Of a DNA stretch of 24,630 nucleotides, positions 144 to 24,630 are shown piece after piece. Source of the DNA: a virus (Duplodnaviria; Heunggongvirae; Uroviricota; Caudoviricetes); IMG/VR virus record IMGVR_UViG_2923318301_000004; one strand, given 5' to 3'. The notes beneath the pieces were generated by a model. The model was given only the letters and a program-made list of their open reading frames with translations, was not told the DNA's origin and ran no database searches. The translations under genes and the position numbers were made by a program. Numbering within the stretch: position 1 is the first letter of the stretch; every line of letters starts with the position of its first letter.

Positions 144-158
144 GGTAATGACTCCAAC

Positions 159-856: not shown

Positions 857-1188
857 TGGAGCACCTCAAAAACACCATCATACACTAAATCAGTAAGTTG
901 GCAGCATCACCCACCAATGGATGCTTGCATTGCCAGCGCGGACAATAAAACGATTGCCCGACAAATGAACAAAACAGTGGAAATTTTGGTGGGGCCACAT
1001 CCGGAACAGTATGTCTGGGTTTTAAAATTGTTAAAAACACGCAAATCAAACGAAGCGGACCCGTACCCTTGAAATTATAAAGTACAAGTATTTCCACTAG
1101 TTGTTTGTAAGCGTACAGCCTGAACCGTCTGGTCAGAATCTGACGAATTAGACAAAGTGGTGTCCACCAAATAAGTAGTGGGAACCAA

Positions 1189-2435: not shown

Positions 2436-2539
2436 ACATTCCACCATGCATTACGATTAACGCCGCATAGCCAGTTGAACTTTGCTACTTTGTGAGAGGT
2501 AGTACCTTCTATCCAGTGCGAATTTAATTAATGGAATAA

Positions 2540-4543: not shown

Positions 4544-4605
4544 TAGCAACATGCCGTCCTGGGGGCGGCAATTATTATCCCGGCCGCAATATGAGGGAAT
4601 GCAGA

Positions 4606-5883
4606 ATGATTTCACGCTGGAAATGGATGCTGAAGCAGACAATTAAAAAACTATGGTTCAGGGCAACGTTATTCGCAATTGTCGCGATAATAACGGCCCT
4701 TTTATCAATTCTTTTTAAATCAATGATACCTGAGTCGGTTTCCGTGAAGGTTGGTGCGGAAGCAGTCGATAACATTCTGAACATACTGGCATCGAGTATG
4801 CTGGCAGTGACCACATTTTCGCTGAGTATCATGGTCACAGCCTACGGTTCAGCCACTACTAATGTGACTCCCAGAGCTACGCGTTTAGTTGTTGAAGACG
4901 TCACCACACAAAATGTACTGGCCACCTTCATCGGTTCTTTTCTCTTCAGTCTGGTAGGGATTATTGCCCTCAATATGGGAGCTTATGGAGAAAGGGGGAG
5001 AGTCATTTTATTCATTGTCACACTGGTTGTCATTGCCTTAATCCTCATCACATTGCTTCGCTGGATACAGCATTTGACCTCTCTGGGGAGGGTTGGTGAG
5101 ACAACGGCACAAGTAGAACAGGCGGCCATCGAAACATTTATTGCGAGAGCAAGAAATCCCTGTCTCGGTGGATATCCATGGCTTGAGAACAATGAACAGC
5201 CGAAAGGAACGGTTGCAGTTTATCCGAAGAAGATTGGCTATGTTGAATATATTGATATGGTGAAACTTAGCAAGCTGCTGACCAATGATCCCCGTCATGT
5301 ATACCTCGTGGCGCAGCCAGGCAGTTTCATACATCCGTCCATGCCAGTTTTGTACCTGAGTCAGGGCCAGGAGTCGTCAATCAACACCGATTTACTTGAG
5401 ACGATTATTGTCTCGGATGCACGTTCATTTGCTCAGGATCCTCGATTTTGTCTTAGCGTCATGGCCGAAATAGCCTGCCGGGCCCTTTCCCCTGCAGTGA
5501 ACGATCCTGGAACCGCCATTGATGTCATTGGCAGAGGTGTTCGTATACTTTCCACTTACGCGCAGAATAAATCTGATGAAATAGAAGTGAAATATCCTTC
5601 AGTACATGTTGCACCACTTCAGAATAACGATCTACTGGAAGACTTTTTCTCACCTGTCGCGCGCGATGGTGCCAGTATGAGGGAGATTCAGATAAGAGTC
5701 CTTAAAGGACTGTCGATGCTGAGTAAAGGTTGGCCTGAGATATTTGCTGAAGCCGCACATACCCTGGCATTTGAAACATTAGAGCATGCAACTCGTGCTG
5801 ACCATATAGATTCTGATAGATATCTAATAAAATCAACTTATTATAATTTATTTAGTGGCGAATATTCTAATAAAAAAACATAG
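4606..5883 (+). CDS. Membrane protein, DUF2254-like (function unknown)
   Basis: ORF with N-terminal transmembrane segments and a soluble C-terminal domain. Start placed at ATG 4606 (MISRWKW...) because GAGGGA lies 7 nt upstream; the six-frame track starts 15 nt earlier at 4591. The DUF2254 assignment is from memory of the family and is uncertain. Confidence 0.55.
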   Translation: MISRWKWMLKQTIKKLWFRATLFAIVAIITALLSILFKSMIPESVSVKVGAEAVDNILNILASSMLAVTTFSLSIMVTAYGSATTNVTPRATRLVVEDVTTQNVLATFIGSFLFSLVGIIALNMGAYGERGRVILFIVTLVVIALILITLLRWIQHLTSLGRVGETTAQVEQAAIETFIARARNPCLGGYPWLENNEQPKGTVAVYPKKIGYVEYIDMVKLSKLLTNDPRHVYLVAQPGSFIHPSMPVLYLSQGQESSINTDLLETIIVSDARSFAQDPRFCLSVMAEIACRALSPAVNDPGTAIDVIGRGVRILSTYAQNKSDEIEVKYPSVHVAPLQNNDLLEDFFSPVARDGASMREIQIRVLKGLSMLSKGWPEIFAEAAHTLAFETLEHATRADHIDSDRYLIKSTYYNLFSGEYSNKKT

Positions 5884-6162
5884 CTGCAGAGCAAGCAATT
5901 CGGTTGTTGGCAAGTCAAGGGCAAAGCATTCGCGTGAGAATGGGCGTATGCTTTGTGCCAAAAGCAAACGTTGCTAATTCTGCACTGTTCAGCGATGGCG
6001 CAGTAGAGACAGGCACTGCCACTGTCCAGTCGGCAAAAGCGAACACTTTGCCACTGCGGGGATAAACTGATTGAAGCTCTCGCGCAAAATCACTTATTCT
6101 TTTGCGTTAATAAAATGTAGGAGATGGGTCATTGATCCTACCCACGTAATATGGACACAGGC

Positions 6163-7029
6163 CTAAGCGAGGTTCTTGTTTTCAAATTGTTCCGGACTGA
6201 GGCCGCCACACCAACTGTGCCGCCGCCACCGATTGTAATCACATTCGATATAATTAAACACCGTTGCCCGCATTATTTCCCGGCTGATAAAGTGTTCTCC
6301 ATGGATACATTCCACTTTCAGCGAATGAAAGAAGCTTTCCACGCAGGCATTATCGTAGCAGCAACCTTTTGCGCTCATACTTCCACGCAGATTATGCCGC
6401 TTCAGTTGCGCCTGATAATCTGCTGAACAGTACTGGCCTCCACGGTCCGTGTGAACGATAACGTTCCGGGGCCTCTTACGCCGCCACAGCGCCATCTGCA
6501 GGGCATCGCAGGCCAGTTGCGCCGTCATGCGTGGCGACATTGACCAGCCAATAACGGCACGTGACCACAGGTCAATGACCACTGCCAGATACAGCCAGCC
6601 TTCATCTGTACGTAAGTACGTGATGTCTCCTGCCCACTTCTGGTTCGGGCCACTGGCGTAAAAATCCTGCTCCAACAGATTTTCTGACACAGGCAGGCCG
6701 TGTGCGCGGTAGCTGACCGGGCTGAACTTCCGGGAGGCCTTTGCCCTCAGTCCCTGACGGCGCAGGCTTGCCGCCACGGTTTTTACGTTAAAGGGGTAAC
6801 CCTGAGCACGCAGTTCATCCGTCAGGCGTGGGGCACCGTAACGCTGTTTTGACCGGGTAAAAGCCGCGAGGACAACGCTGTCGCAGTGTTGGCGGAACTG
6901 CTGACGCGTGCTTATCCTTGTCCGCCGCTGACACCACGTATACCAGCCGCTGCGGGCCACCCGGAGCACGCGGCACATTGCTTTGATGCTGAACTCAGCC
7001 TGATGTTTTTCAATAAAGACATACTTCAT
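6163..7029 (-). CDS. insF: IS3 OrfB (InsF) DDE transposase
   Basis: 288-aa [35 protein letters not shown]...; DDE motif region WAGDITY...HTDRGGQY...[12 protein letters not shown]. Confidence 0.9.
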
Positions 7030-7325
7030 TTCAGGCGCTTCGCGAAGTATGTCGCGGCCTTTTGGAGGATAGCCAGCTCTTCATCCCGTTCTGCCAGCTG
7101 GCGTTTGAGACGTGCAATCTCGGTAGACATCTCCAGTTCACGTTCAGAAGACGTCTGCTGATTTTGCTGTTTACTGCGCCAGTTGTAGAGTTGTGATTCA
7201 TACAGGCTGAGTTCACGGGCTGCGGCAGTAACACCGATGCGTTCAGCAAGCTTCAGGGCTTCACTGCGAAATTCAGGCGAATGCTGTTTACGGGGTTTTT
7301 TACTGGTTGATACTGTTTTTGTCAT
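7026..7325 (-). CDS. insE: IS3 OrfA (InsE)
   Basis: [54 protein letters not shown]...; start taken at the internal Met (MTKTV) rather than the ORF-track Met three codons upstream; overlaps insF by 4 nt (frameshift window). Confidence 0.88.
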
Positions 7326-7391
7326 GTGAGTCACCTCTGACTGAGAGTTTACTCACTTAGCCGCGTGTCCACTATTGCTGGGTAAGATCAC

Positions 7392-8451
<1,060 letters not shown>

Positions 8452-8455
<4 letters not shown>

Positions 8456-8869
8456 TGCCACTGCTGGATAAGCTGCGTGAGCAGTACGGGGTCGGACCGC
8501 TATGCAGCGAACTGCATATTGCCCCGTCAACGTATTACCACTGTCAGCAACAGCGACATCATCCGGATAAACGCAGTGCCCGTGCGCAGCGCGATGACTG
8601 GCTGAAGAAAGAGATACAGCGCGTATACGATGAAAATCACAAGGTATACGGTGTGCGTAAAGTCTGGCGTCAGTTGTTACGGGAAGGTATCAGAGTGGCC
8701 AGATGCACTGTGGCACGTCTCATGGCGGTTATGGGACTTGCCGGTGTTCTCCGGGGTAAAAAGGTCCGTACGACCATCAGCCGGAAAGCCGTTGCCGCAG
8801 GCGACCGCGTAAACCGTCAGTTCGTGGCAGAACGACCTGACCAGCTGTGGGTGGCTGATTTTACTTACG
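8452..8869 (+). pseudogene. IS629 OrfB transposase, 5' exon (interrupted by group II intron)
   Basis: [34 protein letters not shown]...QLWVADFTY then diverges at the intron 5' end (GTGTG at 8870). Confidence 0.8.
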
Positions 8870-9540
8870 GTGTGCCCGGAGTTCAGGGCGGGCATGGATG
8901 CTTAAATGAACCGCGAGTCTGTCTGGAATATTGAGCCGGTAACTCACGATGAGAAACCCAACAATCCCACCGGGTGTGACGGTGGAGAACCTGAGCGGCA
9001 GTGACCTGCGGCATGCCCGCAGGGTGATGTAACCCGCTGACAACGGGGATTGAGGCGAGATCACTAAGCCGAGATGATCCTCAAGGTTAAGTACTGAAAG
9101 GCTGAAGAACATGAACCCGTTAATCCGCCTCTGTGGGTTGAAAACGTCACCACGGCCTACGTGATCTGACAGGCCGTGCAGGAGGAACTGGCAGTGATAC
9201 GTAAGCACTGCCGGTCGAAGGTGTTTTGACATGTATGCGAAACACCGGGGCAGCAGCGTCTATCACGCTTGCGTTGCTGACTTCTGCCAACTTGCGGCAA
9301 GCAAGGATAAAGAGTGCGACGGGCAGCCTCCTCAGTATGCCTGAGTCCAGGCAGGTAAACCGGGGAAGGTCAGCGACGGATGTTAAGGGGGCATGGCTCC
9401 GATGACGCGCTGGCTGGCGGAGCTTCCGTAGTAGTCCGCGATGGGGAAAGCCCATTACATGGCGAAGGGAAGCAGTTTGAATGTGTTTGCGACGTGAATT
9501 AACTGACCTAACGAGGTGAAGACCTTTGATAATCAGCGAA

Positions 9541-11049
9541 ATGCAACGCAAGCTTGCCACATGGGCAGTCACCGATCCGTCCCTACGGATTCAACGGCTG
9601 CTGCGTCTGATAACACAACCAGAATGGCTGGCTGAAGCGGCGCGGATCACGCTTTCATCAAAGGGGGCCCATACCCCCGGCGTTGATGGCGTGAACAAAA
9701 CAATGCTACAGGCCAGACTGGCTGTTGAGCTGCAAATCCTCAGGGATGAATTACTCTCAGGCCACTACCAGCCCTTGCCCGCCAGACGGGTTTACATCCC
9801 TAAAAGCAACGGCAAACTGCGACCACTGGGTATCCCCGCGTTGCGGGATCGTATTGTTCAGCGGGCCATGCTGATGGCGATGGAGCCGATATGGGAGAGT
9901 GATTTTCATACGCTCTCATATGGCTTCCGGCCTGAGCGCAGTGTCCACCACGCGATCCGCACGGTGAAATTACAGCTCACAGACTGTGGTGAAACCCGGG
10001 GACGCTGGGTGATTGAAGGCGACCTGTCCAGTTACTTCGACACCGTACATCATCGACTGCTGATGAAGGCTGTACGCCGCAGGATCAGTGACGCACGTTT
10101 CATGACTCTGCTGTGGAAAACCATCAAGGCGGGACATATCGATGTCGGTCTCTTTCGGGCGGCCAGTGAAGGTGTGCCACAGGGCGGTGTTATATCGCCG
10201 CTATTATCGAACATCATGCTGAATGAGTTCGATCAATACCTGCATGAGCGCTACCTGAGCGGGAAAGCCAGAAAAGATCGGTGGTACTGGAATAACAGTA
10301 TCCAACGGGGCCGAAGTACGGCGGTCAGAGAAAACTGGCAGTGGAAACCCGCGGTGGCGTACTGCCGCTATGCCGATGATTTTGTCCTCATCGTCAAAGG
10401 CACCAAAGCACAGGCGGAAGCCATCAGGGAGGAGTGTCGGGGTGTGCTCGAAGGCAGTCTGAAACTCAGGCTGAACATGGATAAGACTAAAATCACCCAT
10501 GTTAATGACGGCTTTATCTTTCTGGGGCACAGGATCATTCGCAAACGCAGTCGTTATGGCGAGATGCGAGTGGTCTCAACGATCCCGCAGGAGAAAGCCA
10601 GAAACTTCGCCGCATCGCTGACAGCACTGTTATCAGGCAACTACAGTGAAAGCAAAGTCGATATGGCTGAACAACTCAACCGAAAACTGAAAGGCTGGGC
10701 CATGTTCTATCAGTTCGTTGATTTTAAGGCCAAAGTCTTCAGTTATATCGACCGTGTCGTGTTCTGGAAGCTGGCTCACTGGCTGGCCCGCAAATACCGT
10801 ACAGGTATCGCTTCCCTGATGAGGTGGTGGTGTAAATCACCGAAACCGGGTCAGAGCAAAACGTGGGTTTTATTTGGTAAAACCAATCACGGCAAGCTCA
10901 GCGGCGAAATACTGTACCGGTTGGTGGGGCAAGGCAAGAAGCTGTTCCGCTGGCGGCTACCCGAAGGTAATCCCTATCTGAGGACGGAGACCAGAAACAC
11001 GTATACATCGCGCTTTACAGAAGTGGCAATGGCGTTCGCCAGCATTTAA
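9541..11049 (+). CDS. Group II intron-encoded protein (reverse transcriptase/maturase)
   Basis: RT motifs in order (RPLGIPALRDRIVQ; SYGFRPERS; YCRYADDFVLIV) followed by a maturase (X) domain; start assigned to the first ATG (MQRKLATW...) rather than the TTG at 9526 used by the ORF track. Confidence 0.85.
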   Translation: MQRKLATWAVTDPSLRIQRLLRLITQPEWLAEAARITLSSKGAHTPGVDGVNKTMLQARLAVELQILRDELLSGHYQPLPARRVYIPKSNGKLRPLGIPALRDRIVQRAMLMAMEPIWESDFHTLSYGFRPERSVHHAIRTVKLQLTDCGETRGRWVIEGDLSSYFDTVHHRLLMKAVRRRISDARFMTLLWKTIKAGHIDVGLFRAASEGVPQGGVISPLLSNIMLNEFDQYLHERYLSGKARKDRWYWNNSIQRGRSTAVRENWQWKPAVAYCRYADDFVLIVKGTKAQAEAIREECRGVLEGSLKLRLNMDKTKITHVNDGFIFLGHRIIRKRSRYGEMRVVSTIPQEKARNFAASLTALLSGNYSESKVDMAEQLNRKLKGWAMFYQFVDFKAKVFSYIDRVVFWKLAHWLARKYRTGIASLMRWWCKSPKPGQSKTWVLFGKTNHGKLSGEILYRLVGQGKKLFRWRLPEGNPYLRTETRNTYTSRFTEVAMAFASI

Positions 11050-11053
11050 ATGG

Positions 11054-11087
11054 AGAGCCGGATGCGCTGAAAGGTGCACGTCCGGTT
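11054..11087 (+). ncRNA. Group II intron domain V (catalytic hairpin)
   Basis: GAGCCGGATGCGCTGAAAGGTGCACGTCCGGTTC: about 34 nt, AGC triad near the 5' end, 2-nt bulge, GAAA tetraloop, immediately after the IEP stop codon and about 50 nt from the intron 3' end. Confidence 0.65.
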
Positions 11088-11111
11088 CGGGGAGGAGAGG
11101 CAGGGAAATAG

Positions 11112-11612
<501 letters not shown>

Positions 11613-11654
11613 GTTCACAGATAAAACACTCTCCAGGAAACCCGGGGCGGTTCA

Positions 11655-12792
11655 CTCATCTGCCGCTCTACCGCATCCCTCGACCATAATCCCGACTCAA
11701 TCAACGAACTACAAGCCATCGTCCTGAAGCCATGCCCACAAACCTCGACCTTCGTGTCATACCCCATTACGCGCAAAGCCTTGTTCACCGTATTCTCACT
11801 CATCGGCTTACGTGGATCGTGATCGCCCACAAAAATCAGCTCTCAATTTCCGCTCATGCTTTTGATCTTTTCCAAAATACTTAGGGCCTGCCGCGACAAA
11901 GGTACAAGGTGTGGTGTCCGCATCTTCGAGCCACGCTGAGAATGCTTGACTCCTTCCAGTTGCTCACGCTCACCTGGGATTGTCCACATAGCCGTTTCAA
12001 AATCTACTTCTGACCAGCGGGCAAAATGCAGCTCGCTCGAACGGATGAAAACCAATAAAGTGAGTTCAACCGCCAGCCGAGTTAACGGTCTGCCAGAATA
12101 GTGATCTATGCGATGAAGTAATTCAGGTATACGGTTCAGTTCAAGAGCTGCACGGTGCTGTCTTTTCGCCGTAGCAACCGCACCTGCAATCTCTTGCGCG
12201 GGGTTGTAGTCGATTAAGCCGCTCTGAACGGCAAAGCGCATAATCGCGGTAGTACGCTGCTGTAAACGGGCGGCAACTTCGAGCCGCCCGGATGACTCGA
12301 CTGCTTTAATGGGTACAAGAAGATCCCGCGTCTTCAGTTCCGCAATGTTCCGCTTACCGATAGCAGTAAAGAGATTATCCTCCAGACTTTTCAAAACACG
12401 AGCGCTATGCGATGCCGACCACTTCTGATTGCTGGCGTGCCAGTCTCTGGCGACTACTTCAACGTTATCGCCTCTTGTTCCTGTTCTACCTTAACAGCTT
12501 TCTTGTTTTCACTGGGATCGACACCATTAGCTAAAAGCTTACGAGCCTCATCCCGGCGTGCCCTGGCATCCGCCAACGACACTTCGGGGTATTTCCCCAA
12601 TGCCAGCATCTTCTCTTTACCGCCAAAGCGATAACGTAGCCGCCAGTATTTGGAGCCGTTAGGGTGAACCAGCAAAACCATGCCTTCACCGTCGGTCAGC
12701 TTATAGGCTTTTGCTTCAGGCTTAGCCGAACGAACCTTCACATCACTCAGAGCCATGATGAGTATCCTTTCAAGGGTTCTGTGTGGGTACAA
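11655..12792 (-). pseudogene. P4-type tyrosine integrase pseudogene (frameshifted, C-terminus removed by IS629)
   Basis: Three consecutive minus-strand ORF pieces (12454-12792 N-terminus MALSDVKVRSAKPEAKAYKLTDGEGMVLLVHPNGSKYWRLRYRF...; 11843-12394; 11615-11830) together cover a P4-like integrase but in different frames; the last piece abuts the IS629 end. Confidence 0.8.
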
Positions 12793-12954: not shown

Positions 12955-12976
12955 TGGTGCGAAGGCCGGAATAGAA
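12955..12976 (-). other. Degenerate tRNA-Leu (leuX) 3'-end-like sequence; candidate att remnant of a P4-like element
   Basis: Minus strand reads TTCTATTCCGGCCTTCGCACCA, close to the 3' end of leuX as I recall it (TTCGAGTCCGGCCTTCGGCACCA); lies about 160 bp upstream of the integrase pseudogene, as in tRNA-int junctions. Confidence 0.4.
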
Positions 12977-13210
12977 TAACTATATAACTCATTGAACATG
13001 ATGATAAAAATTTTATAGCTTATGACTTGTGCCCCATTTTGTGCCCCCAACAAAATCTTATTGTTGCTAACTAGCACAATAAATGAATTAGCAAGATAGA
13101 GTTGCCTAGTTAGGTTCCGTCTTACAGAGCCTAACCAGAACAACCAAACCTCTGAACCAACCTTGCGCAAGCTAGATAAAGTCATGCTGATTTATTAGGA
13201 CAACAAGCTA

Positions 13211-14143
13211 TTAAATTTCATATTTTGAAATTTCGCTGATTACATCATCCCCATATTTCTTAATCATGGAGGCAAAGAATTTATGTTCAATAAATTTCGC
13301 ATAGCCTAATTCTCCTTTAAGGGTTAGAATTTCTTTCTCAGATAAAACCCCACACACATAATAATGTATTTTACTTCTTAAAAGACGCTTTCTATCACGA
13401 CCTAAAGACAAATAACCATCAGTCGTAATAGTTACACCAGTTACATGTCTATTAAACTTCCTTGAGGTAAAAACTGTTTTCTCATGGTTTATTTTAATAT
13501 TCCTAAGATTTACTACGTTAAGAACTTCCCTTACTAACTTAGGAACATCAAATAAAGCTCCTTTGACTTTGGTGCTAAACGTAAGATCATCAGCATACCT
13601 TGAGTAGGTAATACCCAAATCCTTGCATCTTTTCGATATTTCCTCATCGAAGAAATACATTACTGTATTTGAAATAATGGGAGAAGAAGGTGCTCCAACA
13701 CTTAGGCGTAACGGGCTATTTCTTCTTAACTTCCAGAAGAAAAGATTTTTAAGAACAAAGATATCAGTATCAGTTAGTTCAACGCCATAATCTTTTAAGA
13801 CAGATAAAAGATTATGGGGTTTGATACTCATAAAAAAGTTTTTAAAATCCATTTTAAGCAAATAATCATTATTACAATGCATTAACGCATTAGATCTAAT
13901 ACTTTTATCGGCTTCATAAGCGAAAGCATTTTCATGAACTTTCAAATTAGCCAACATATGATTGATTACTACCTTCTGTAAGGCTTTAACTTGCCTAGCT
14001 GGTTGTGCAATTAATCTATATCCATTACCATTTCTTTTGGCGATAGGATAAATTTTATATCTGCGTGGAATAGTAACAATATACCTTTTAGCCTCTTCTT
14101 CGCTAAGAAAAAGACCTTTTGAAATATAACTTAGCAACTCCAT
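13211..14143 (-). CDS. Retron-type reverse transcriptase
   Basis: About 310 aa, RT domain only (no maturase or endonuclease); motifs SNALMH (NAxxH), FKNFF, VGAPSSP, YSRYADDLTFS (YADD) and NRHVTGVTI (retron VTG); start ATG lies 1 nt after the upstream effector stop (TAGaATG); collinear with Ec86 RT as I recall it. Confidence 0.85.
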   Translation of the reverse strand: MELLSYISKGLFLSEEEAKRYIVTIPRRYKIYPIAKRNGNGYRLIAQPARQVKALQKVVINHMLANLKVHENAFAYEADKSIRSNALMHCNNDYLLKMDFKNFFMSIKPHNLLSVLKDYGVELTDTDIFVLKNLFFWKLRRNSPLRLSVGAPSSPIISNTVMYFFDEEISKRCKDLGITYSRYADDLTFSTKVKGALFDVPKLVREVLNVVNLRNIKINHEKTVFTSRKFNRHVTGVTITTDGYLSLGRDRKRLLRSKIHYYVCGVLSEKEILTLKGELGYAKFIEHKFFASMIKKYGDDVISEISKYEI

Positions 14144-14144
14144 T

Positions 14145-15131
14145 CTAAGCCCCTCCACGCACGATATTGATTTGATTTAGAGCATTTTTCCTTTTTTTTG
14201 CAGTCTCGTCCATATCTTTAGCATCCATACTTAAGTAAGATTGTCGGATTGCAACCTTAATATTCATAGAATCCTTTATTTTACCACTAGCACTGATACC
14301 AAATTTAAGTTTACTCTCTCTATGCCCTCGGGAATAGAAGTAGTCTGTACCACTGTAAGATAATGATGAGGTTAATTTCATCTTTTCAAGCAAATAAAGT
14401 AAACGAGTTATTATTTTTTGTGGCACATCTATATCCATACAGTATAGTGCCCACTCTATTTCGCTTTTCTTGATTGGTTCTGATAAAAGGATTATTTCGT
14501 AAATCAATATAGCTAGGTGCCCAGTATTTTCAGGGTTATATCGCTCCGTTTTTTTTACACGTTTTAATCTAGAATGAATATCATGGTAGATAAGCTCAAC
14601 CTCATCATATTTCATACGATCCGATTTTGGCCATGGATAAACTGATACTGAGGCCTCATCTATTTTTTTAAGATACTCCAAAGGGCCTAAATATATAAAA
14701 GAAGATCTAGCAGGAATATTTTTTCGTTCATTTCCCTCAATCTCCTCAAATGGTGCGACTACATGCAATTTTTGAGCTAGAGACTTCCTATTAACAAATA
14801 ATCCAAGCTCAACTAACGAACCTGCACTTTCTAAACAGATAACAACTAATGTTGAAATATTTGCAATATCATCTTCAAAGCTCATTAGATCTGAATATGC
14901 CCCCTCTCTGAAGTAGTCATGGAAGTTCTCAGCTAAAATAAGAGAATCTGACAATTCAGGTTTGTGGCCTGCTACATAAGTAAATATGTGGTCTCGTACA
15001 CTCATTGGAGTGGAATTTATCGGCCCACCACAAACAAAAATAATAGGAGGCATGAACTGAACAGTGAAATTTGAATATTTCAAATCTCCAAACTGCTCTT
15101 GTAATGCATTCATATATGCAGAATCACTCAC
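14145..15131 (-). CDS. Retron effector, putative nucleoside 2-deoxyribosyltransferase-like (NDT) domain plus C-terminal putative DNA-binding domain
   Basis: 328-aa ORF between the structured non-coding region and the RT; N-terminal region PPIIFVCGGPI...ICLESAGSLVELGLF resembles the Rossmann-like NDT fold with a candidate catalytic Glu; likely GTG start at 15131 with AGGGGGT as RBS (alternative ATG at 15113). AT-rich codon usage like the RT. Confidence 0.6.
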   Translation of the reverse strand: MSDSAYMNALQEQFGDLKYSNFTVQFMPPIIFVCGGPINSTPMSVRDHIFTYVAGHKPELSDSLILAENFHDYFREGAYSDLMSFEDDIANISTLVVICLESAGSLVELGLFVNRKSLAQKLHVVAPFEEIEGNERKNIPARSSFIYLGPLEYLKKIDEASVSVYPWPKSDRMKYDEVELIYHDIHSRLKRVKKTERYNPENTGHLAILIYEIILLSEPIKKSEIEWALYCMDIDVPQKIITRLLYLLEKMKLTSSLSYSGTDYFYSRGHRESKLKFGISASGKIKDSMNIKVAIRQSYLSMDAKDMDETAKKRKNALNQINIVRGGA

Positions 15132-15139
15132 CCTTGTGA

Positions 15140-15420
15140 CCCCCTACTCCAAAAGAAAAGGTGGCTAACCAGCCACCTTCGACCCCTTTACCTAAAGGAT
15201 GCGCTTTAGACTTTCAGCAAGATCCTGAATGGAACGCAGTGGCATGAAGGATCTTGCTGAAAGTGCTAAAGCGCAACCCTAAATGTCCACAATAAATTAG
15301 TGTCTGGCGAAACGCCCGACAAGGATAAACCTGTTATCCCGCGCGTAAAGGTAGGGTTAGGATAGCAAAAGATGCGAGATTTTCAATAAGTAAGCGTACT
15401 GGCTGCCAGCAACCACCTAA
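15140..15420 (-). ncRNA. Candidate retron ncRNA (msr-msd) upstream of the effector/RT operon
   Basis: Non-coding, structure-rich stretch immediately 5' of the effector: long imperfect hairpin 15201-15274 (GCGCTTTAG.CTTTCAGCAAGATCC / GGATCTTGCTGAAAG..CTAAAGCGC), a candidate msd stem; second hairpin 15159-15180. Exact ends and a1/a2 repeats not resolved by eye. Confidence 0.45.
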
Positions 15421-15700
15421 ACCATTGACATTTAAACAAAAATAAATCTAACAATTGAAAGCAATACCTTATTGAATACAGCATTCTTATATCTCTCTTG
15501 ATATCGCAACATCACAATTATCACCGTTAGTGCGGGCAGCCCCGCACGCCTGCCCGCTTCGCTTAACAGACTGGTTTTCATGCACCTCATTAATCGTCTC
15601 AGAAGCCAGCACACAAGGGTTTTCTCGTCAAAAATGGTGCATAAGACTCATGCGTTTTCATGCGCCATAGACATGCACTCATGCGCTCTCATGTCAGCCA

Positions 15701-15758: not shown

Positions 15759-16040
15759 TCAGACAGGAATCTGCTGACGGCTTGACAGTTTTGACGCGGA
15801 GCCATAGCGATTGAGCGTTTTCTGTTGTTTTTCCGGGGATTGTGCTTTGTCTGATAGCTGTTCATTGCGCCGGGGTTTCATGATTATCTTATCCACACTC
15901 TCCAGTGCCGTAAATGTGCAGGAACATTCCAGATTCTGGCACTGATACCACGAGCGTTTAACTGACGGAGCTTCATAGGCTGCTGTTCTGGCGTGTGCAA
16001 CTGTACCGCATTCCGGACATTTAAGTGCCATTAATATCAC
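15759..16040 (-). CDS. ogr: Ogr/Delta-family zinc-finger late-gene transcriptional activator
   Basis: ALKCPECGTVAHARTAAYEAPSVKRSWYQCQNLECSCTFTALESVDKIIMKP has the CxxC-(22)-CxxxxC pattern and spacing of P2 Ogr/P4 Delta; start may be the internal Met at 16031. Confidence 0.8.
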   Translation of the reverse strand: MILMALKCPECGTVAHARTAAYEAPSVKRSWYQCQNLECSCTFTALESVDKIIMKPRRNEQLSDKAQSPEKQQKTLNRYGSASKLSSRQQIPV

Positions 16041-16588
16041 TCCTGTATATCGTTAATGTCATTCAGGCGTTGCTGAAAACGCAGATGTTGTGCCGGGGTG
16101 TAAGAACCCTGGCAATCACGAATCATCCCGGGGTCAGGCATCAAACCGGATTCATCCAGGATCTCACGATAATCCCCGGCAATTTCAGGCGGTGTTATTG
16201 CCAGCTGGCGAACCAGAGCACTGCGTAATATACGGGACGCAACGTCAACCCCTCCGCGCCCCTTCAGGAACGGAGCCAGTGCAGATGTCAGGGCTGCCCC
16301 ATTCGCCTGCATAAAATTGCTGAGAGCGGCTTCTGTGCAGGCCTCCATCAGTAAATGCTGCGAGTAAATGCATTCGCGCGCAGCACAGTTAATTTGCCAT
16401 TTCAGCACATCCAGACGTTCCCGCAGTAATTCGAGCTGTCGGGCATAATCTGCTGGTTTTTCTGTGGCAGCGAGGAGAGATGTTATCTGTTGTTCAACGG
16501 CTTTTCGGCTCTCATTATGTCCGGCCCACAGAATACGGGCATTCCGAAAACTGGTAAGTGCCTGGTCAGGCGTGCCTCGGGCCGTCAT
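16037..16588 (-). CDS. psu: Psu-like protein (P4 polarity suppression / capsid decoration)
   Basis: 183 aa; segments LELLRERLDVLKWQINCAARECIYSQHLL, FMQANGAALTSALAPFL and YTPAQHLRF resemble P4 Psu as I recall it; start overlaps the sid stop. Confidence 0.65.
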   Translation of the reverse strand: MTARGTPDQALTSFRNARILWAGHNESRKAVEQQITSLLAATEKPADYARQLELLRERLDVLKWQINCAARECIYSQHLLMEACTEAALSNFMQANGAALTSALAPFLKGRGGVDVASRILRSALVRQLAITPPEIAGDYREILDESGLMPDPGMIRDCQGSYTPAQHLRFQQRLNDINDIQE

Positions 16589-17328
16589 ACTGCTTTCTCC
16601 TTCTCAGCAAGTTCCTGACGAACCTTAATTTTATGCATAGCTGCCGGAGAGAGTTGATTACTGAAATCCAGACGCGCCGCATAATCCGGGGCAACTCCCG
16701 CCAGTTTAAACACCGGGTCCTGCTCAGGCATCGCATCGTTAGCCAGAGCCGGTCTGGTGATATGTTTATGAATAAAGTCTTTCAGCACTGTGTCCGGGTC
16801 ATTAACTGAATTCACCACACCCACAACGGCACTGGCTTCCCGGCCCATTGTGGATTTAAGCAGGCTCAGCGTCTGAATAAGCGCTTTTCCATGCGACTGC
16901 ATAAAATCCTCCCAGATTTGTTTTGCGCGAATATCCACAAGAATGTTATGCGCGTGGATATACTTTCCGGCTAATTCTGCAGCTTTCTGCGGCAAAAGTG
17001 CATTTTCGCTTTCCTGAGCCGCCAGCAGCTCATCAAAATCCTCAAGCGTTTCTCGTCCCAGCGCAATTTCCGTGCGCAGTTTTTTCATTTCCTTTGAGAC
17101 CACGCCCTGACTTTCACGAAACAGCGTGCGCCACTCCTCATTCAGTGTGTTCGTCGTGGCTTCCATTTCAGCGCGACGCTGGCGGATTGTCGCAATATTA
17201 TCCGCTGCCGCTTTCTGCTGACGACGTGCTTCAAGCCATGCGTTTCTGGCTGTGTTCATGGTTTCCAGTGCCCGCTGCGTTACAGCCGGAAAAGTGGAAA
17301 GGTTGTTATTCACTGCGGTGTTGTTCAT
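16585..17328 (-). CDS. sid: Sid-like protein (P4 capsid size determination external scaffold)
   Basis: 247 aa, strongly helical and charged; EWRTLFRESQGVVSKEMKKLR and position directly upstream of psu match P4 Sid as I recall it. Family call rests mainly on gene context. Confidence 0.55.
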   Translation of the reverse strand: MNNTAVNNNLSTFPAVTQRALETMNTARNAWLEARRQQKAAADNIATIRQRRAEMEATTNTLNEEWRTLFRESQGVVSKEMKKLRTEIALGRETLEDFDELLAAQESENALLPQKAAELAGKYIHAHNILVDIRAKQIWEDFMQSHGKALIQTLSLLKSTMGREASAVVGVVNSVNDPDTVLKDFIHKHITRPALANDAMPEQDPVFKLAGVAPDYAARLDFSNQLSPAAMHKIKVRQELAEKEKAV

Positions 17329-17728: not shown

Positions 17729-20401
17729 TTAACCCGGCACCTCGCTGTTGAAGACATAGAGCCTGCGGGGATTCATCTCTGGCGGGCGAATGGTTGTCTG
17801 GAGTTTGCCATCAGTGGAGGGCAGCAGGTATCCACGATCTGCGCACAGACGCGCCACCTTGCGCGGGTCAAATCCCCTGCAGATTTCTTTCCAGCCGGAC
17901 GGCATGACATAGAACGTAGTGACAGCTTCCGTGCCCTGCGCGGTACTGCCTTTCTCCACCCTGCGCCAGCCCACCATATTGCCGGGGCGGTTGCGCTCGT
18001 CATACCAGTCTGCAAAGCGGCTGTACTGATTCGCGGTAAAGAAACTGCGAACCTGCTCCAGTGCGGCGATATCTTCCTGATTGGCGGTGTGCCCGCGATC
18101 TTTCAGCCATGCGTTCAGGCAGACGCGGGTTGCCCGCAGTGCTTCACCCTCAGGCCAGCCGGTGATACCCAGACGGGTTGCCAGTTCACCTGCCATCGCC
18201 ACCAGAGCAAAGCGGTTCACAGCCCGGCCCACCTGATTGCCTGCATCTTTCGGAGTCAGGGCGGCAGCATATTCCTTCATCAGCGATTTTGCCTGTGCCG
18301 TTAGTCCGTTAAGATCAGCGGTCAGTGCTTTCAGCCACTCCCGGAACGGCGAACCGTAGTAGCAGGACGTGGCCCATTCAAGATGCTCTGCCAGAGCCTT
18401 GCCGCTGTCGAAGCCGTGCAGCTCCTCAAAAACGCCAAACTTCCCGGAATCGCTGGGGATCTGGATCATCCTGACTTCCATCCCGGCAAAAGTACGCTCA
18501 CCGGCCTTTGCCGCATGTTCGGTCAGAGACAACTCGCCAGTTGAAAAGAACAACAGGCGCCAATGCTTACGGGTACGCAGCTCACCGTCCGTACCGGCAC
18601 GGCCCTTGCCCTGACCGTTTGCCAGCATGTAGGCGATATTGCCTGCCTCGCGTCCGTCAACTTCCCGGATCTCATCAAGCATCATGGCGGCATCGTTGCG
18701 GCGGCTGGCGCATCCCTCCAGCGCGTTGCCGGTGGCCCGCCATGTCTGCCAGTAGTCAGGCCCGCCGCAGACGGAGGTTGCCGCTTTCATGGTGGTGGTC
18801 TTACCGTCTGTCGATTCCCCTTTGAGGTGGTAGCCGCCGCCGTCCATACCAACCAGCCGTAACAGTGGTGCAGCAAAGGCCAGGCTGACAGCAAATGCCA
18901 CGCGGGAGTTGCCGGTACAGTAGCGGGATACATGCTCCCGCCATTCCTCTGTTGTGCCCGACACGCGGAAATCACGCCCCTGCACGGAAGTGGTCTGGAG
19001 AATGACACCCTCTGCACCTTCACCGCTGACCTCATCCTGCAGGACGTAAACCTGACCATGCCAGCCAGTACGACTGACGCAGGTCACGCGGCGTTCCGGT
19101 TTACACAGTGAGATATATTCCATCAGGCGTGCGCGTGCCTCACCGGTGGTGCTGATATAAGACAGCCCGTTAACCAGCAATACCCGGCGCAGTTCCTCAC
19201 CACTGCCGCTCAGCATTTCCATCGGCATCGCCCAGCGGCGACACTCACCCCACGTATCTTCCCATTCCAGCAGTCGTCCGAAGTTACCGCCATCGGCATC
19301 GCAGGTGATTGCCGTCACGCGCAGCGGGCTGCATATTTTGACGTTCTGGATCTCCGTCTCACCGTTGCGCTGTACCTGCTTTTCATACCAGAGATATTCC
19401 TGGGTAAGACGGAACCCGTGCGGCAGTTGCGTGCGGCCCTCCCCGCACAGCACCAGACCGTTACGAAAGGCTTCACGGGCGCGGGTAATACCGTGCTCCC
19501 GATGGAAGTCATTCCAGTCGGCCTTAATCTCTCCCGGTGGCAGCGTCATCCAGCCGCCAACAGCTTTTGCCGCCCGTTCAGCAAAGGCTCTGCCGGGATT
19601 CTCACCCCCGTCCTGAAAATCGTTATCACCGGCGATGATAATTTTTACCTCAGGCCAGCGTGCCCGCAGCGACTGCGCCACATTGGGCAGGTTGCCCGCA
19701 GATATGGCAGCCACTACGCATCCGGCAGTGAGCTGACTTACCGTCAGCGCCGTAGCGTAACCTTCGGTAATCACCACCTGTACCGGTGGTTCAGACGGTA
19801 ACGGGCTGAGCGACACAAACGCGCCTTTCATCGTGCTGCCGGGCAGTATGCTTTTTTCACCCGTCGGGGCGATAAGCTGTGCACCAGTCACGGCTCCGGT
19901 GTTGGTCGTGAGTGGTAACAGCAGGGAACCGGCAGGAAAATCCTTACCGCTGATATGCTGCACGCTTCCGGTCAGAGAGGCCGGGTATCCGGCGAACCCT
20001 TTTCCTGTCAGATAGGCGCTTTCTCCCGTGTGGCTCTCTTTCATCAGCGCCGCCACGGTAAGACCCATGTCGCGTTTAGGGGCTTTTTTTCTGGCAGGCT
20101 TAACAGGCAGTTCCTGCACATCCGGCACATTAAGCACCTGCGCCACCTCCTGCGCAGCCTTTCTGACGCTGTAACCGGTTACGAGCTTAACCAGATCCAG
20201 ACCGTCACCATTGCCACACTGGCTGCAGATCCACGTCCCGCGCCCGTCAAGGTCATCAAGGCGAAAACGATCCTTGCCCCCACATTTCGGGCAGGGACCG
20301 TGCCTGCCGTTTTCAGGTACATCAATACGCAGCATCTGGAGAATAACGGGCCATTTCCCCCGTGCGGCGGCTGAAATCTGCGTAACCGTCTGTATTGTCA
20401 T
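17729..20401 (-). CDS. P4 alpha-like primase-helicase (zinc-binding N-terminus, TOPRIM primase, C-terminal P-loop helicase)
   Basis: 890 aa; CPKCGGKDRFRLDD...WICSQCG zinc ribbon; TOPRIM-like VVITEGYATALT...IIAGDNDFQDGGENPG; Walker A GESTDGKTT. Confidence 0.85.
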   Translation of the reverse strand: MTIQTVTQISAAARGKWPVILQMLRIDVPENGRHGPCPKCGGKDRFRLDDLDGRGTWICSQCGNGDGLDLVKLVTGYSVRKAAQEVAQVLNVPDVQELPVKPARKKAPKRDMGLTVAALMKESHTGESAYLTGKGFAGYPASLTGSVQHISGKDFPAGSLLLPLTTNTGAVTGAQLIAPTGEKSILPGSTMKGAFVSLSPLPSEPPVQVVITEGYATALTVSQLTAGCVVAAISAGNLPNVAQSLRARWPEVKIIIAGDNDFQDGGENPGRAFAERAAKAVGGWMTLPPGEIKADWNDFHREHGITRAREAFRNGLVLCGEGRTQLPHGFRLTQEYLWYEKQVQRNGETEIQNVKICSPLRVTAITCDADGGNFGRLLEWEDTWGECRRWAMPMEMLSGSGEELRRVLLVNGLSYISTTGEARARLMEYISLCKPERRVTCVSRTGWHGQVYVLQDEVSGEGAEGVILQTTSVQGRDFRVSGTTEEWREHVSRYCTGNSRVAFAVSLAFAAPLLRLVGMDGGGYHLKGESTDGKTTTMKAATSVCGGPDYWQTWRATGNALEGCASRRNDAAMMLDEIREVDGREAGNIAYMLANGQGKGRAGTDGELRTRKHWRLLFFSTGELSLTEHAAKAGERTFAGMEVRMIQIPSDSGKFGVFEELHGFDSGKALAEHLEWATSCYYGSPFREWLKALTADLNGLTAQAKSLMKEYAAALTPKDAGNQVGRAVNRFALVAMAGELATRLGITGWPEGEALRATRVCLNAWLKDRGHTANQEDIAALEQVRSFFTANQYSRFADWYDERNRPGNMVGWRRVEKGSTAQGTEAVTTFYVMPSGWKEICRGFDPRKVARLCADRGYLLPSTDGKLQTTIRPPEMNPRRLYVFNSEVPG

Positions 20402-22091: not shown

Positions 22092-22322
22092 TTAGTGATT
22101 TTCATATCGCTCACCACGAGAGGCATATATTTGCTCTTGAATCCAGTGATCCACTTCGCTTTCAACAAATGAAATTGCACGAGTTCCTATTTTCACCGGA
22201 CGGGGAAATGTATTGTTTGCAAGCTGTTTGTAAAGCCATGCCTTGCTACGCTGAACGCGTCTTAAGACCTCTTTTGCTGAGATAAGAGTCTGATTATCTG
22301 AAAAGCTGTTTGCATATTCCAT
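22092..22322 (-). CDS. alpA: AlpA/Vis-family phage regulatory protein (excisionase-like winged HTH)
   Basis: MEYANSFSDNQTLISAKEVLRRVQRSKAWLYKQLANNTFPRPVKIGTRAISFVESEVDHWIQEQ matches the AlpA/P4 Vis pattern; start placed at ATG 22322 (GGAGT RBS 8 nt upstream) rather than the track's 22367. Confidence 0.7.
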   Translation of the reverse strand: MEYANSFSDNQTLISAKEVLRRVQRSKAWLYKQLANNTFPRPVKIGTRAISFVESEVDHWIQEQIYASRGERYENH

Positions 22323-22699: not shown

Positions 22700-23338
22700 T
22701 TACTCTCCGTATTTTATAATGTCTTTCCCAAGCTTTATTTTCTTATAAAACGTAGCTTTTTTAACCCCTTTCATTAGAATCTCATTCTCATTACAAAAAG
22801 AAACAATATCATTATATATAACACTATTATCGCTATAACTTACCTTTCCATGTCTCTTAAGCAATTCAATTAGTAAATAAATTAATTTACAACTATAATT
22901 ATCCTCATCATCTTTTCTGTACTGCCCTCTACCATTACTCCTTAATTTTTTACCAACTTCATATAATTCACTTCCTCCTAACGTCATTAGAATATCACTC
23001 CAATCTTTATTTTTTACCTGTTGTCGTAATGCGTTCTCAATTCTCTCCTTAATCTCCACAGGTACAATACCTTCCCTCTGAAAGATATAAGCGGCAGTTA
23101 ATAATAAGTTCGCCTCCACTTTTTGCGTGGCGGATACGTTTTTATATTCATTAATTAATTGTAGATTTCTGGTTATTGCCTTTCTTAATCTAATAACCTC
23201 TTTTAATTGAACCTCAGTCAATTCATCATTTTCGGTATCATAGTCAAAACCATTCATAGCAAGCGCCACTTCGTGTGGCGTTATGTAAGTTAACCTATTA
23301 AAATAAAACAAATTATTATCAAATTGAGTATTATTCAT
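22700..23338 (-). CDS. Hypothetical protein, AT-rich orphan gene between int and alpA
   Basis: 212-aa ORF with markedly AT-rich, Lys/Asn/Ile/Tyr-rich composition unlike the flanking integrase and P4 core genes; no family recognised. Confidence 0.6.
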   Translation of the reverse strand: MNNTQFDNNLFYFNRLTYITPHEVALAMNGFDYDTENDELTEVQLKEVIRLRKAITRNLQLINEYKNVSATQKVEANLLLTAAYIFQREGIVPVEIKERIENALRQQVKNKDWSDILMTLGGSELYEVGKKLRSNGRGQYRKDDEDNYSCKLIYLLIELLKRHGKVSYSDNSVIYNDIVSFCNENEILMKGVKKATFYKKIKLGKDIIKYGE

Positions 23339-23367: not shown

Positions 23368-24630
23368 TTATTTTCCATGCATACGCGCAAAATCATATGG
23401 TGTGACAGATCCATTCTTATTAGCATCAATATAATCAGCCCACCACTGCAGCATTAATCTTCTTTCTTCAAGATATTCGGAAGTATGCATATATGAACCT
23501 TTCACATTTTTTCGTTCAACGTGGCTTAACTGTCTTTCAATGGCATCATCATTCCATAGTTTCGACTCACTTAGCGCACCACGCGCCATAGTTCTAAACC
23601 CATGACCACATACTTCAGTTTTCGTATCATATCCCATTACACGTAAGGCGTTATTTACTGTATTTTCACTCATTACTTTTTTAGGATCATGATCGCTGGG
23701 AAATATAACCTCACCTTTACCACTCAAGGCATGTAAACGTTTAAAAATATCAAATGCTTGTTTGCTAAGCGGAACAATATGTTCAGTTTTCATCTTCATC
23801 CCACGCTCAGAGTGTTTTACGCCGGGAATAGGCTTACGAATTCCGGGTATTGTCCACTCGCTTCGTTCAAAGTTAACCTCACTCCAGCGAGCAAAACGCA
23901 TCTCACTTGAACGTATAAATGTGAGTAGCGTTAATTCAACGGCAAGCCGTGTCATTAGTCGCCCTTTATAGCGTGATAGTCTTTCAAGAAGCTCAGGGAT
24001 TCTTTTTGGGGGTAGTGCTGGGTGGTGGGTTGCTTTAACGCTTAAAAGCGCTCCAGCCATATCGCATGCAGGATTTGATTCAAGGAGGTCATTCTGCACA
24101 CCAAAACGCATAATTGCGGTTACGCGCTGCATCAGTCGCTGCGCGACATCATGTTTACCCGCCGTATCGACAGCTTTGATTGGATTGAGAAGCTGGCTGG
24201 TTCTCAACGTTCTGGCATCGATTTGACCTATCGAGGGGAAAATATACTGCTCAAGTGTCAGCAGAACACGACGGCTATGATCTTCGCTCCAAGTAAGGTT
24301 ACTTGCGTGCCATTGCCTTGCGATAGTTTCAAATAAATATGCCCCCTCAATTTCAGCTTGTGCCCCCTTTTGCTCAGCTTTGGGGTCAATACCCTGAGAC
24401 AACAATTTCTTTGCTGCATCGCGCTTACCCCGCGCTTCAGCCAAAGTGACCGTCGGGTATACACCAAAAGCGAGTCGATCTTCCTTTTTGTCAGAGGGGC
24501 GGCGATATTTCATGCGCCAGTACTTAGAACCTTTAGGGGAGACCTCAAGATACAAACCGCCTCCATCAGCCATTTTATAAGCTTTCTCTTTCGGCTTTGC
24601 GGTCTCTATCTGGCGAGCGTTGAGTTTCAT
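23368..24630 (-). CDS. int: P4-type tyrosine integrase (intact, 420 aa); start codon at the window edge
   Basis: N-terminal AKPKEKAYKMADGGGLYLEVSPKGSKYWRMKYR... and C-terminal catalytic region (HGFRTMARGAL...; ...YMHTSEYLEERR) typical of the P4/IntA family. Confidence 0.9.
   Translation of the reverse strand: MKLNARQIETAKPKEKAYKMADGGGLYLEVSPKGSKYWRMKYRRPSDKKEDRLAFGVYPTVTLAEARGKRDAAKKLLSQGIDPKAEQKGAQAEIEGAYLFETIARQWHASNLTWSEDHSRRVLLTLEQYIFPSIGQIDARTLRTSQLLNPIKAVDTAGKHDVAQRLMQRVTAIMRFGVQNDLLESNPACDMAGALLSVKATHHPALPPKRIPELLERLSRYKGRLMTRLAVELTLLTFIRSSEMRFARWSEVNFERSEWTIPGIRKPIPGVKHSERGMKMKTEHIVPLSKQAFDIFKRLHALSGKGEVIFPSDHDPKKVMSENTVNNALRVMGYDTKTEVCGHGFRTMARGALSESKLWNDDAIERQLSHVERKNVKGSYMHTSEYLEERRLMLQWWADYIDANKNGSVTPYDFARMHGK

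Follow-up and report, generated by a model that had tools for sequence, protein, structure and literature searches.

The low-GC module between the ogr/delta gene and an att remnant of a P4-like satellite raises two questions: whether it is a retron and, if so, whether it is one already known. In the window (the whole stretch of DNA analyzed, 24,630 nucleotides), the minus strand from 13211 to 15400 carries a three-part unit composed of a promoter with a structured non-coding RNA (ncRNA), a 328-aa effector and a 310-aa reverse transcriptase (RT), and this entire unit, including its promoter, falls inside positions 13211–15420 (Table 1). The GC content drops to 0.33–0.36 across 13001–15000 from ~0.50 in the flanks. 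The module is very probably Retron-Eco9 or a nearly identical retron, of type II-A1 and the St85/Sen2 family, in the variable cargo slot of the satellite beside a cos-like site.

Table 1. Features of the retron and of the satellite that carries it, in window coordinates.
Feature	Position	Strand	Details
attR	12955..13048	-	P4-type arm repeats GGGGGCACAAAATGGGGCACAAG (13048-13026) and core remnant
Retron RT	13211..14143	-	310 aa from ATG; Pfam RVT_1 1.5e-27; PGAP WP_000422112.1
Effector (rcaT)	14145..15131	-	328 aa, GTG start at 15131
Intrinsic-terminator hairpin	15150..15180	-	AAGGUGGCU-GGUU-AGCCACCUU then UUCUUUU; between a2 and effector start codon
msd template	15185..15285	-	74-nt near-perfect hairpin (15274-15201), then a2 GUAAAGG (15191-15185)
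msr	15286..15352	-	a1 CCUUUAC (15351-15345), predicted branching G 15344, two stem-loops
Sigma-70-type promoter	15359..15386	-	-35 TTGAAA (15386-15381), extended -10 TGcTATCCT (15367-15359)
cos-like site	15530..15559	-	AAGCGGGCA/GGCGTGCGGGGCTGCCCGCAC; between delta terminator and retron promoter
ogr/delta	15759-16040	-	Pfam Ogr_Delta
psu	16037-16588	-	Pfam Psu
sid-like gene	16585-17328	-	Supported by Pfam; PGAP annotation of identical region, strain M217
Alpha primase	17729-20401	-	Pfam Zn_Ribbon_Prim/Toprim_3/DUF927
AlpA	22092-22322		Pfam Phage_AlpA
P4-type integrase	23368-24630		Adjoins tRNA-Leu

The RT motifs named in the first-pass annotation (NAxxH, VTG and YADD) are all present when read directly from the translation, as NALMH (N85–H89), VTG (234–236) and YADD (183–186), with N85, A86, H89, Y183–D186, T235 and G236 unchanged in all 26 homologues compared. 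Retron models gave the best matches, led by PADLOC RT_II-A (401 bits, 7.9e-121) and with NCBIfam retron_St85_RT (NF038233) at 333.8 bits over a cutoff of 235. The effector stop and RT start are separated by a single nucleotide, as had been noted: TAG (14147–14145), a (14144) and ATG (14143–14141).

The middle gene, flanked by ncRNA and RT, encodes an NDT_II-A/STM3845-family protein (PADLOC NDT_II-A, 1.8e-87; NCBIfam STM3845_fam above its curated cutoff). Its predicted structure (pLDDT 88.8) combines an NDT-like N-terminal domain, which bears out the fold that had been proposed for this protein, with a winged-helix C-terminal domain, and the model matches the Retron-Eco1 effector, NDT-superfamily enzymes and winged-helix regulators. 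The predicted catalytic glutamate (E108 in 328-aa numbering) aligns with E106 of Eco1 and is invariant in 67 homologues. An alternative start, the ATG at 15113, would yield a 322-aa form.

Profile matches place the retron in subtype II-A1, the subtype of Sen2, Ec73 and Vc81, with an RT of clade 1, the clade shared with type I-A; the retron is not of the Ec86 subtype II-A3. The gene order had previously been described as Sen2/Ec86-type (type II-A); type II-A and the Sen2 subtype stand on the PADLOC and NCBIfam matches, but the Ec86 half does not, and the remark that RT and effector are far from identical to Ec86 was apt, as both are distant relatives (E 1e-30 and 2e-6). The likeness to Retron-Eco1 (Ec86) resides in the effector, through the fold (Foldseek E 4e-11, probability 1.00) and a common ESxGSxxELG active-site motif, at an identity of 18–20% in structural alignment; the solved Eco1 structures include a filament with ADP-ribosylated effector and the inactive E106A mutant. 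The RT clade and the ncRNA of Eco1 are different, and its msDNA is of the branched type. Retron-Eco3 (Ec73) is likewise type II-A1, has its effector between msr-msd and RT and is carried by the P4-like retronphage phiR73, which made it a candidate, but the present RT is only 31% identical to that of Ec73 (RT73_ECOLX) and the candidate was rejected. Further, phiR73 integrates at selC and the present element at tRNA-Leu.

The structured non-coding region that had been noticed upstream of the effector folds far better than shuffled sequence (z = -6.27) and is conserved from promoter to terminator across ten related loci, with its structure kept and compensatory changes present. The promoter matches the consensus at 9/12 positions with a TG ahead of the -10, and predicts a transcription start at ~15352; all ten loci keep the TTGA of the -35 and a TGnTAnnCT -10, while conservation is lost ahead of the -35 and again in the stretch from the -10 to a1. 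In the msr, the stem of stem-loop 1 (15340–15322) is kept among relatives with a variable loop, and stem-loop 2, GUCGGGCG-UUU-CGCCAGAC (15320–15302), is invariant. The Rfam msr model (RF00170) matches over its full length (1–69) with E 2.8e-6, its 42.2 bits falling short of the gathering score (52), and STnc400 (RF02058) matches over its full length at 15145–15281, also below gathering (55.4 bits, E 4.3e-10). The msd hairpin contains a GATC duplex, has a folding energy of -42.9 kcal/mol and shows five pairs changed on both sides across relatives; Rfam miRNA-family matches to it were set aside as generic long-hairpin matches far below threshold. The branching G is predicted at 15344 from alignment with the Sen2-type ncRNA. 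A minimum free energy pairing of AACCCUA (15357–15351) with UAGGGUU, upstream of the msd hairpin, was rejected in favor of a1/a2 (CCUUUAC/GUAAAGG) because AACCCUA is not conserved in relatives. With just 7 bp that hardly vary, the a1/a2 pairing itself gains little support from covariation. Over the ncRNA structure, 92.6% of cells are paired, compared to 31–50% with the partners slid, and nine pairs have changes on both sides, a number reached in 0 of 500 shuffles. The terminator hairpin has ten pairs, four with compensatory changes among relatives.

Sen2 (St85, S. Typhimurium, II-A1) has the same architecture and HMM families and was represented here by an E. coli locus (L095) whose proteins cluster at 90% with those of S. 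Typhimurium. The two retrons share the promoter, a1 and the G, the msd hairpin with its GATC duplex, a2 and, after a2, an equivalent terminator hairpin with a T-run; stem-loop 2 differs by one base, the msd hairpin is longer in the present retron (an 11-nt insertion in the alignment) and the predicted msDNA begins with CTAAA instead of CTAGA. The msDNA of Sen2 is Exo VII-processed and unbranched, the type expected for the present retron. The Sen2-type copy adjoins mnmE beside a frameshifted integrase and is not in a P4-like satellite.

It is this comparison with Sen2 that ties the retron to Retron-Eco9, described from E. coli NILS-16 (Bobonis et al., bioRxiv 10.1101/2020.06.22.160168 and.160242; see also Palka et al. 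2022, PMC8989520). Published identities of Eco9 to Sen2 are 49% for the RT, 43% for RcaT, 58% for the msd and 85% for the msr; measured against the Sen2-type locus, the present retron gives 49% for the RT, 43% for the effector, 59% for the msd and, for the msr, 78% when alignment columns are counted or 84% relative to the shorter sequence, with msr boundaries that may differ from those behind the published figure. Additionally, RcaT-Eco9 is phosphorylated at serines 155, 181, 254 and 292 (T7 kinase study, PMC13645617), and all four residues are serine in the present effector when numbered from the 322-aa form (none is in 328-aa numbering), an agreement with a chance of ~1e-4 at a serine fraction of ~10%. 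Because the RT and effector identities to Sen2 and all four serine positions equal the published values, the retron is almost certainly Retron-Eco9, as judged from its published descriptors. The order msr-msd, rcaT, RT and an effector composed of NDT and DNA-binding domains are common to both. The effector start is flagged as a discrepancy (328 aa from the GTG in PGAP, 322 aa implied by the published numbering); nothing else was found to differ in the descriptors compared. The earlier suggestion of an uncharacterised member is not supported, as PGAP already labels the same 2.7 kb "retron St85 family" in about 155 complete E. coli genomes and the published Eco9 descriptors are matched.

That the module is instead a distinct, unnamed II-A1 retron, with the architecture and mechanism of Sen2 and Eco9, is an unlikely but not negligible reading. 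Another allele or a close paralogue could give the same percentages, since Eco9 was matched through descriptors; the 90% effector cluster contains several alleles, with a 90%-identical Klebsiella form just outside it, and related retrons with 64–78% RT identity occur in many Enterobacterales. Against this stand the exact 49% and 43% agreement, the four serines and a search of 5,426 complete E. coli genomes for distant DNA matches, which returned 156 near-full copies; the remaining matches were short, divergent fragments, one of them in the Sen2-type locus. A further reading is decay, in that the locus might be a non-functional remnant in an immobilised satellite. The attR core has a 1-nt deletion, the neighboring, degenerate integrase is interrupted by an IS3, and the effector is truncated or split in some relatives (L085, L091). 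However, both open reading frames are full length with all catalytic motifs intact, the promoter, ncRNA and terminator fit the conserved consensus and the 2.7-kb stretch is 100% identical among the genomes listed, such that a decayed remnant is very improbable and the retron is, on its sequence, complete and intact.

Misassignment of the RT is a concern of a different kind. A genuine group II intron does occur in the window (ltrA at ~9541–11049; Rfam Intron_gpII at 11053–11139), but it is a separate element within an IS3, 2 kb from the retron. On the retron RT, the group II model (group_II_RT_mat) scores 45 bits against a cutoff of 300, Drt2 38 and Drt3a 32, as opposed to 334 on the St85 retron model, and the RT has NAxxH and VTG; we find it scarcely credible that a group II intron, DGR or Abi/DRT RT has been mistaken for a retron, and the RT falls where it had been predicted to. 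In favor of a type I-A retron (Septu-like, with ATPase and HNH) or a stand-alone RT cassette, the RT_I-A HMM scores nearly as high as RT_II-A (1.1e-112) and the nearest solved RT structures are type I-A (9n69, 4e-84; Ec78 and Ec83, ~1e-66). A Salmonella locus among the listed RT-profile matches (L078), considered as Sen2 and rejected, is itself type I-A by the 541-aa ATPase that follows its RT. Yet types I-A and II-A1 have RT clade 1 and an ncRNA type in common (Mestre 2020), which accounts for the similarity, and the locus has no ATPase or HNH gene but an NDT_II-A/STM3845-family gene in the middle, leaving this alternative a negligible chance. The Eco9-type II-A1 assignment is retained below.

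The host element is an 11.8-kb P4-like satellite at tRNA-Leu, with all of the P4-like core genes present (int, alpA/vis, alpha primase, sid, psu and delta) and two Pfam Psu matches in its backbone, and the retron occupies its variable cargo slot near the cos-like site. PGAP annotation of the identical region of strain M217 also supports this backbone. The att remnant had been correctly recognized downstream of the RT: its core, TCCGGCCTTCG-CACCA (12970–12955), lies ~55 nt beyond the arm repeats and equals the tRNA-Leu 3′ end minus one G, and the locus contains no other exact match of at least 12 nt to the tRNA region. By direct comparison, using the intact tRNA-Leu/attL of strain M217, the attL and attR arm repeats closely resemble P4 attP. 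The cos-like site shares 12 of 13 positions with AAGCGGGCGGGCG, the cos junction of P4, a match that is weak and not significant alone (E 1.2), and it fits the pattern GGCG..CGGGG..GCAC seen in the 19-nt cohesive end of P2/P4; its designation as cos-like is argued from position. The degenerate integrase at 11615–12792 was considered as the satellite's own, as where int abuts the RT in relatives, and rejected because it runs in the same direction as the RT, comes after the tRNA-Leu core remnant and has different arm repeats of its own (GCGGGTA, not GGGGCA). The arrangement is therefore that of a tandem leuX island.

The variable locus of P4 (the gop-beta-cII position) carries many defense systems, including retrons (Rousset et al. 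2022, PMC9122126), and the earlier placement of the present module in a psu-to-int hotspot was correct: both elements have the slot beside cos (a cos-like site here), flanked by psu/delta on one side and the att/int module on the other. The geometry differs in that the P4 slot is between cos and the int 3′ end, whereas here int lies beyond attP and the retron abuts attR when integrated.

While the anatomy comes from the present analysis, the steps of the proposed mechanism are drawn from the Eco9, Sen2 and Eco1 literature or inferred. The conserved promoter would transcribe the msr-msd RNA, with most transcripts probably ending at the conserved terminator and read-through yielding the rcaT-RT mRNA. 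The RT would bind the msr stem-loops, prime on the 2′-OH of the predicted branching G and copy the msd hairpin, and RNase H1 and Exo VII may process the product to an unbranched hairpin msDNA, as reported for Eco9. The RT-msDNA complex would then bind and silence RcaT until phage functions that modify or degrade msDNA release it, reported to be RecE for Eco9 and Dam, acting on the GATC duplex, for Sen2. The glycosidase-type active site (E108) of freed RcaT would arrest the cell and abort the infection. [quoted passage not shown] The T7 kinase study (PMC13645617) adds that Eco9 also protects against T7, a defense lost when RcaT is phosphorylated by the T7 kinase, and describes the biochemical target of RcaT as unclear.

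The position of the retron invites a further idea, that Eco9-type retrons are co-adapted passengers of P4-like satellites with activity tied to the satellite life cycle, which we consider improbable and offer as speculation. Most of the related loci examined have the retron immediately downstream of ogr/delta and facing the same way; in the window, ogr/delta closes the sid-psu-delta late operon, the cos-like site comes next, and the covarying intrinsic terminator stands between the ncRNA and rcaT-RT. With that terminator and the late-operon position, the proportion of ncRNA to toxin and RT could shift during P2 infection, through helper-phage activation of late transcription combined with read-through or Psu-type antitermination.

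An RT-profile scan of genome contigs returned, among the matches listed, only relatives of 50% identity or less, and the closer relatives were taken from contigs encoding homologous proteins. A megablast of the phage collection gave no match, and literature queries with the msd and msr sequence strings and the WP and UniProt accessions gave none either. The family, the mechanism, the sequence itself and the carriage of retrons by P4-like satellites have all been published; the retron is not new, and the locus matters little as a find, though it has modest practical use. It supplies base-level coordinates for the promoter, a1/a2, branching G, msd and terminator. It also shows the experimentally used Retron-Eco9 in its natural setting, a leuX P4-like satellite found widely among clinical E. 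coli isolates, where the retron fills the cargo slot close to the cos-like site.

The retron is a minus-strand module of ncRNA (msr-msd), effector and RT (see table), and the three-part, low-GC arrangement described in the first-pass annotation is supported by the ORF listing, by the TAG-a-ATG effector/RT junction read from the sequence, by base composition (GC of 0.33-0.36 across 13001-15000 versus ~0.50 on either side) and by the RT motifs NALMH, YADD and VTG, whose residues do not vary among 26 aligned homologues. The start of the effector is ambiguous: the GTG at 15131 (328 aa, PGAP) follows a G-rich stretch and is kept as GTG or TTG in relatives, whereas the ATG at 15113 (322 aa) agrees with 322-aa database entries and with published residue numbers for RcaT-Eco9, the toxin-like effector of the E. 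coli NILS-16 retron.

Features of the retron and of neighbouring elements
Feature	Position	Strand	Remarks
IS3-family element interrupted by group II intron	8150-11612		truncates neighbouring integrase
Rfam ALIL frameshift pseudoknot	8410-8526		part of IS3/group II intron evidence
ltrA	~9541-11049		group II intron inside IS3
Rfam Intron_gpII domain	11053-11139		group II intron inside IS3
Degenerate tyrosine integrase	11615-12792	minus	frameshifts, internal stop; begins ~160 nt past tRNA-Leu core remnant
RT ORF	ATG at 14143, ends 13211	minus	310 aa from ATG (ORF listing)
Effector ORF	14145-15131	minus	328 aa, GTG start (ORF listing)
Terminator hairpin	15180-15150	minus	between a2 and effector start
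a2 inverted repeat	15191-15185	minus	GUAAAGG
msd hairpin	15274-15201	minus	74 nt
msr stem-loops (two)		minus	second, GUCGGGCG-UUU-CGCCAGAC, invariant (alignment)
Predicted branching G	15344	minus	
a1 inverted repeat	15351-15345	minus	CCUUUAC
Sigma-70 promoter	-35 15386-15381; extended -10 15367-15359	minus	-35 TTGAAA; consensus scan and alignment
Sen2-type retron of E. coli MFDS1019527	2436-4620 of that locus (L095)		adjoins mnmE-yidC, beside frameshifted integrase

Pfam places the RT in RVT_1 only and finds no domain in the effector. Among PADLOC models, RT_II-A is the best match of the RT (7.9e-121), with RT_I-A a close second (1.1e-112), and the effector matches NDT_II-A (1.8e-87). In NCBIfam, the RT scores 333.8 bits against retron_St85_RT (cutoff 235) and stays far short of cutoff on group II intron models and on Drt models, which argues for the retron RT first proposed, and the effector scores 223.7 bits against STM3845_fam (cutoff 100), in line with its suggested NDT-like character. 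The nearest solved structures of the RT are type I-A retron RTs (4e-84 to ~1e-66), with the Ec86 RT distant (1e-30), and the sole solved match of the effector is the Ec86 effector (2e-6), with which it has an ESxGSxxELG motif in common. This combination of an I-A-like RT and a distant Ec86 match agrees with the description of type II-A1 (Sen2, Vc81, Ec73) by Mestre et al., in which that type and type I-A have the same RT clade, clade 1, and the same ncRNA type; Ec86 itself is type II-A3. Thus the original reading of a Sen2/Ec86-type II-A retron is correct as to the retron and its type, and the subtype is II-A1 rather than that of Ec86.

An AlphaFold2 model of the effector, built with a 67-sequence alignment (pLDDT 88.8, pTM 0.88), has significant Foldseek matches in the PDB only to the Retron-Eco1 effector (8qbk, 8qbl, 7xjg; E 4e-11 to 9e-11, probability 1.00), and the predicted structure bears out the proposed NDT-like fold. 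Effector residue E108 is invariant in the 67-sequence alignment and corresponds to E106 of Eco1, which is mutated in the Eco1 structure with an inactive effector. In two relatives (L091 of Proteus, 2011-2999, and L085, 2124-2999) the effector is split (205 aa and 73 aa) or called N-terminally shorter (291 aa) and the RT is intact, which suggests that the toxin may occasionally be lost.

The 286 nt 5' of the effector have a folding z of -6.27. This region was aligned with those of nine related loci (RT identity 57-76%) from Enterobacter, Phytobacter, Pantoea, Salmonella, Providencia, Morganella, Proteus, Pectobacterium and Yersinia, and conservation begins exactly at the sigma-70 promoter and extends to the terminator just before the start codon. 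In the proposed structure, 92.6% of cells are paired, versus 31-50% with partners slid, and nine pairs changed on both sides (five in the msd hairpin, four in the terminator), a count reached by none of 500 shuffles. A permissive Rfam scan gave full-length, sub-threshold matches to msr RF00170 (15286-15352; 42 bits, E 2.8e-6) and to STnc400 RF02058 (15145-15281; 55 bits, E 4.3e-10), the latter covering msd through terminator. This sRNA family appears to be the msd and terminator of this St85/Sen2 retron family, and transcripts ending at the terminator fit its extent. The intrinsic terminator, with its compensatory changes in relatives, is also found after the Sen2-type ncRNA.

The suggestion that this may be an uncharacterised member does not stand: the locus is already known. 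The 2.7 kb retron region, which PGAP labels "retron St85 family", is 100% identical among the genomes listed; 156 complete E. coli genomes out of 5,426 contain 80% or more of its length, and contigs encoding the RT protein number at least 1,000. Ec73 was ruled out, its RT being only 31% identical. A distant DNA search of E. coli genomes found one other relative, L095 at mnmE (E. coli MFDS1019527, NZ_CP169309), taken as Sen2-type because the 90% clusters to which its proteins belong consist mostly of Salmonella enterica sequences, serovar Typhimurium among them. Against L095 the identities of the window's retron are 49% (RT), 43% (effector), 59% (msd) and 78-84% (msr); those published for Retron-Eco9 against Sen2 are 49%, 43%, 58% and 85% (Bobonis et al., bioRxiv 10.1101/2020.06.22.160168 and.160242), equal for the two proteins and near for msd and msr. 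A study of the T7 kinase names Ser155, Ser181, Ser254 and Ser292 of RcaT-Eco9 (PMC13645617), and numbering from the ATG at 15113 places serine at all four positions, versus none in the 328-aa numbering. Based on these identities and serine positions, the retron is very probably Retron-Eco9 or a near-identical allele, as matched through the published descriptors of Eco9.

Of the satellite's genes, Ogr_Delta, Psu, a Sid-like member of the Psu family, alpha primase and AlpA are borne out by Pfam. In strain M217, sequence 99.94% identical to the window from 8842 onwards runs into a P4-type integrase adjoining tRNA-Leu. The arm repeats 3' of the RT (GGGGGCACAAAATGGGGCACAAG), followed ~55 nt on by TCCGGCCTTCG-CACCA, reproduce the arm and core layout of P4 attP. 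This attR core (12955-12970, minus) lacks one G of the tRNA-Leu 3' end (TCCGGCCTTCGGCACCA), and excision of the satellite might be impaired. The stretch from the delta terminator to the retron promoter contains a cos-like sequence that agrees with the P4 cos junction in 12 of 13 bases, a weak match alone. Given this flanking att and cos-like layout, the retron appears, on the circular map, to fill the slot next to cos that separates psu/delta from att-int, as the first-pass annotation had placed it; this slot is the P4 defence hotspot, in which retrons have been found (Rousset et al., PMC9122126). The int/att module is arranged differently here than on the map of P4 itself, and most relatives of the retron likewise lie between ogr/delta and an integrase.

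The degenerate integrase is cut by IS3 and has its own arm-type repeats (TGCGGGTACAACTGCGGGTAT, inverted TGTACCCACA) that differ from those of the satellite, which indicates that it is part of an older leuX island in tandem with the satellite. The window is rearranged 5' of IS3 (1-8841) relative to M217, with 911-5140 corresponding to 4230-1 of the M217 locus in reverse, suggesting a putative IS-mediated inversion between the two strains. A 212-aa ORF (22700-23338, minus, GC ~0.30-0.35) separates alpA from the integrase of the satellite; searches with Pfam and PADLOC gave no match to it, and it matches only phrog_30524, a family without assigned function. Variable cargo may thus have a second slot here.

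The anatomy described here comes from this analysis, and the functional steps are drawn from the Eco9, Sen2 and Eco1 literature. [quoted passage not shown] Eco9 produces unbranched RT-DNA and has a modest, RNase H1-dependent defence against T2 (Eco9 literature); it is triggered by RecE and blocked by RacC, and the Sen2 toxin is triggered by Dam via a GATC duplex in the msDNA (retron literature). Eco9 also defends against T7, except when the T7 kinase phosphorylates RcaT (PMC13645617). The terminator would probably yield an excess of ncRNA over rcaT-RT mRNA. The GATC duplex in the msd stem is perfectly paired in this E. coli allele, which could make the allele Dam-sensitive; in eight of the ten aligned sequences the pair at that position is broken, the 3' arm reading GAGC.
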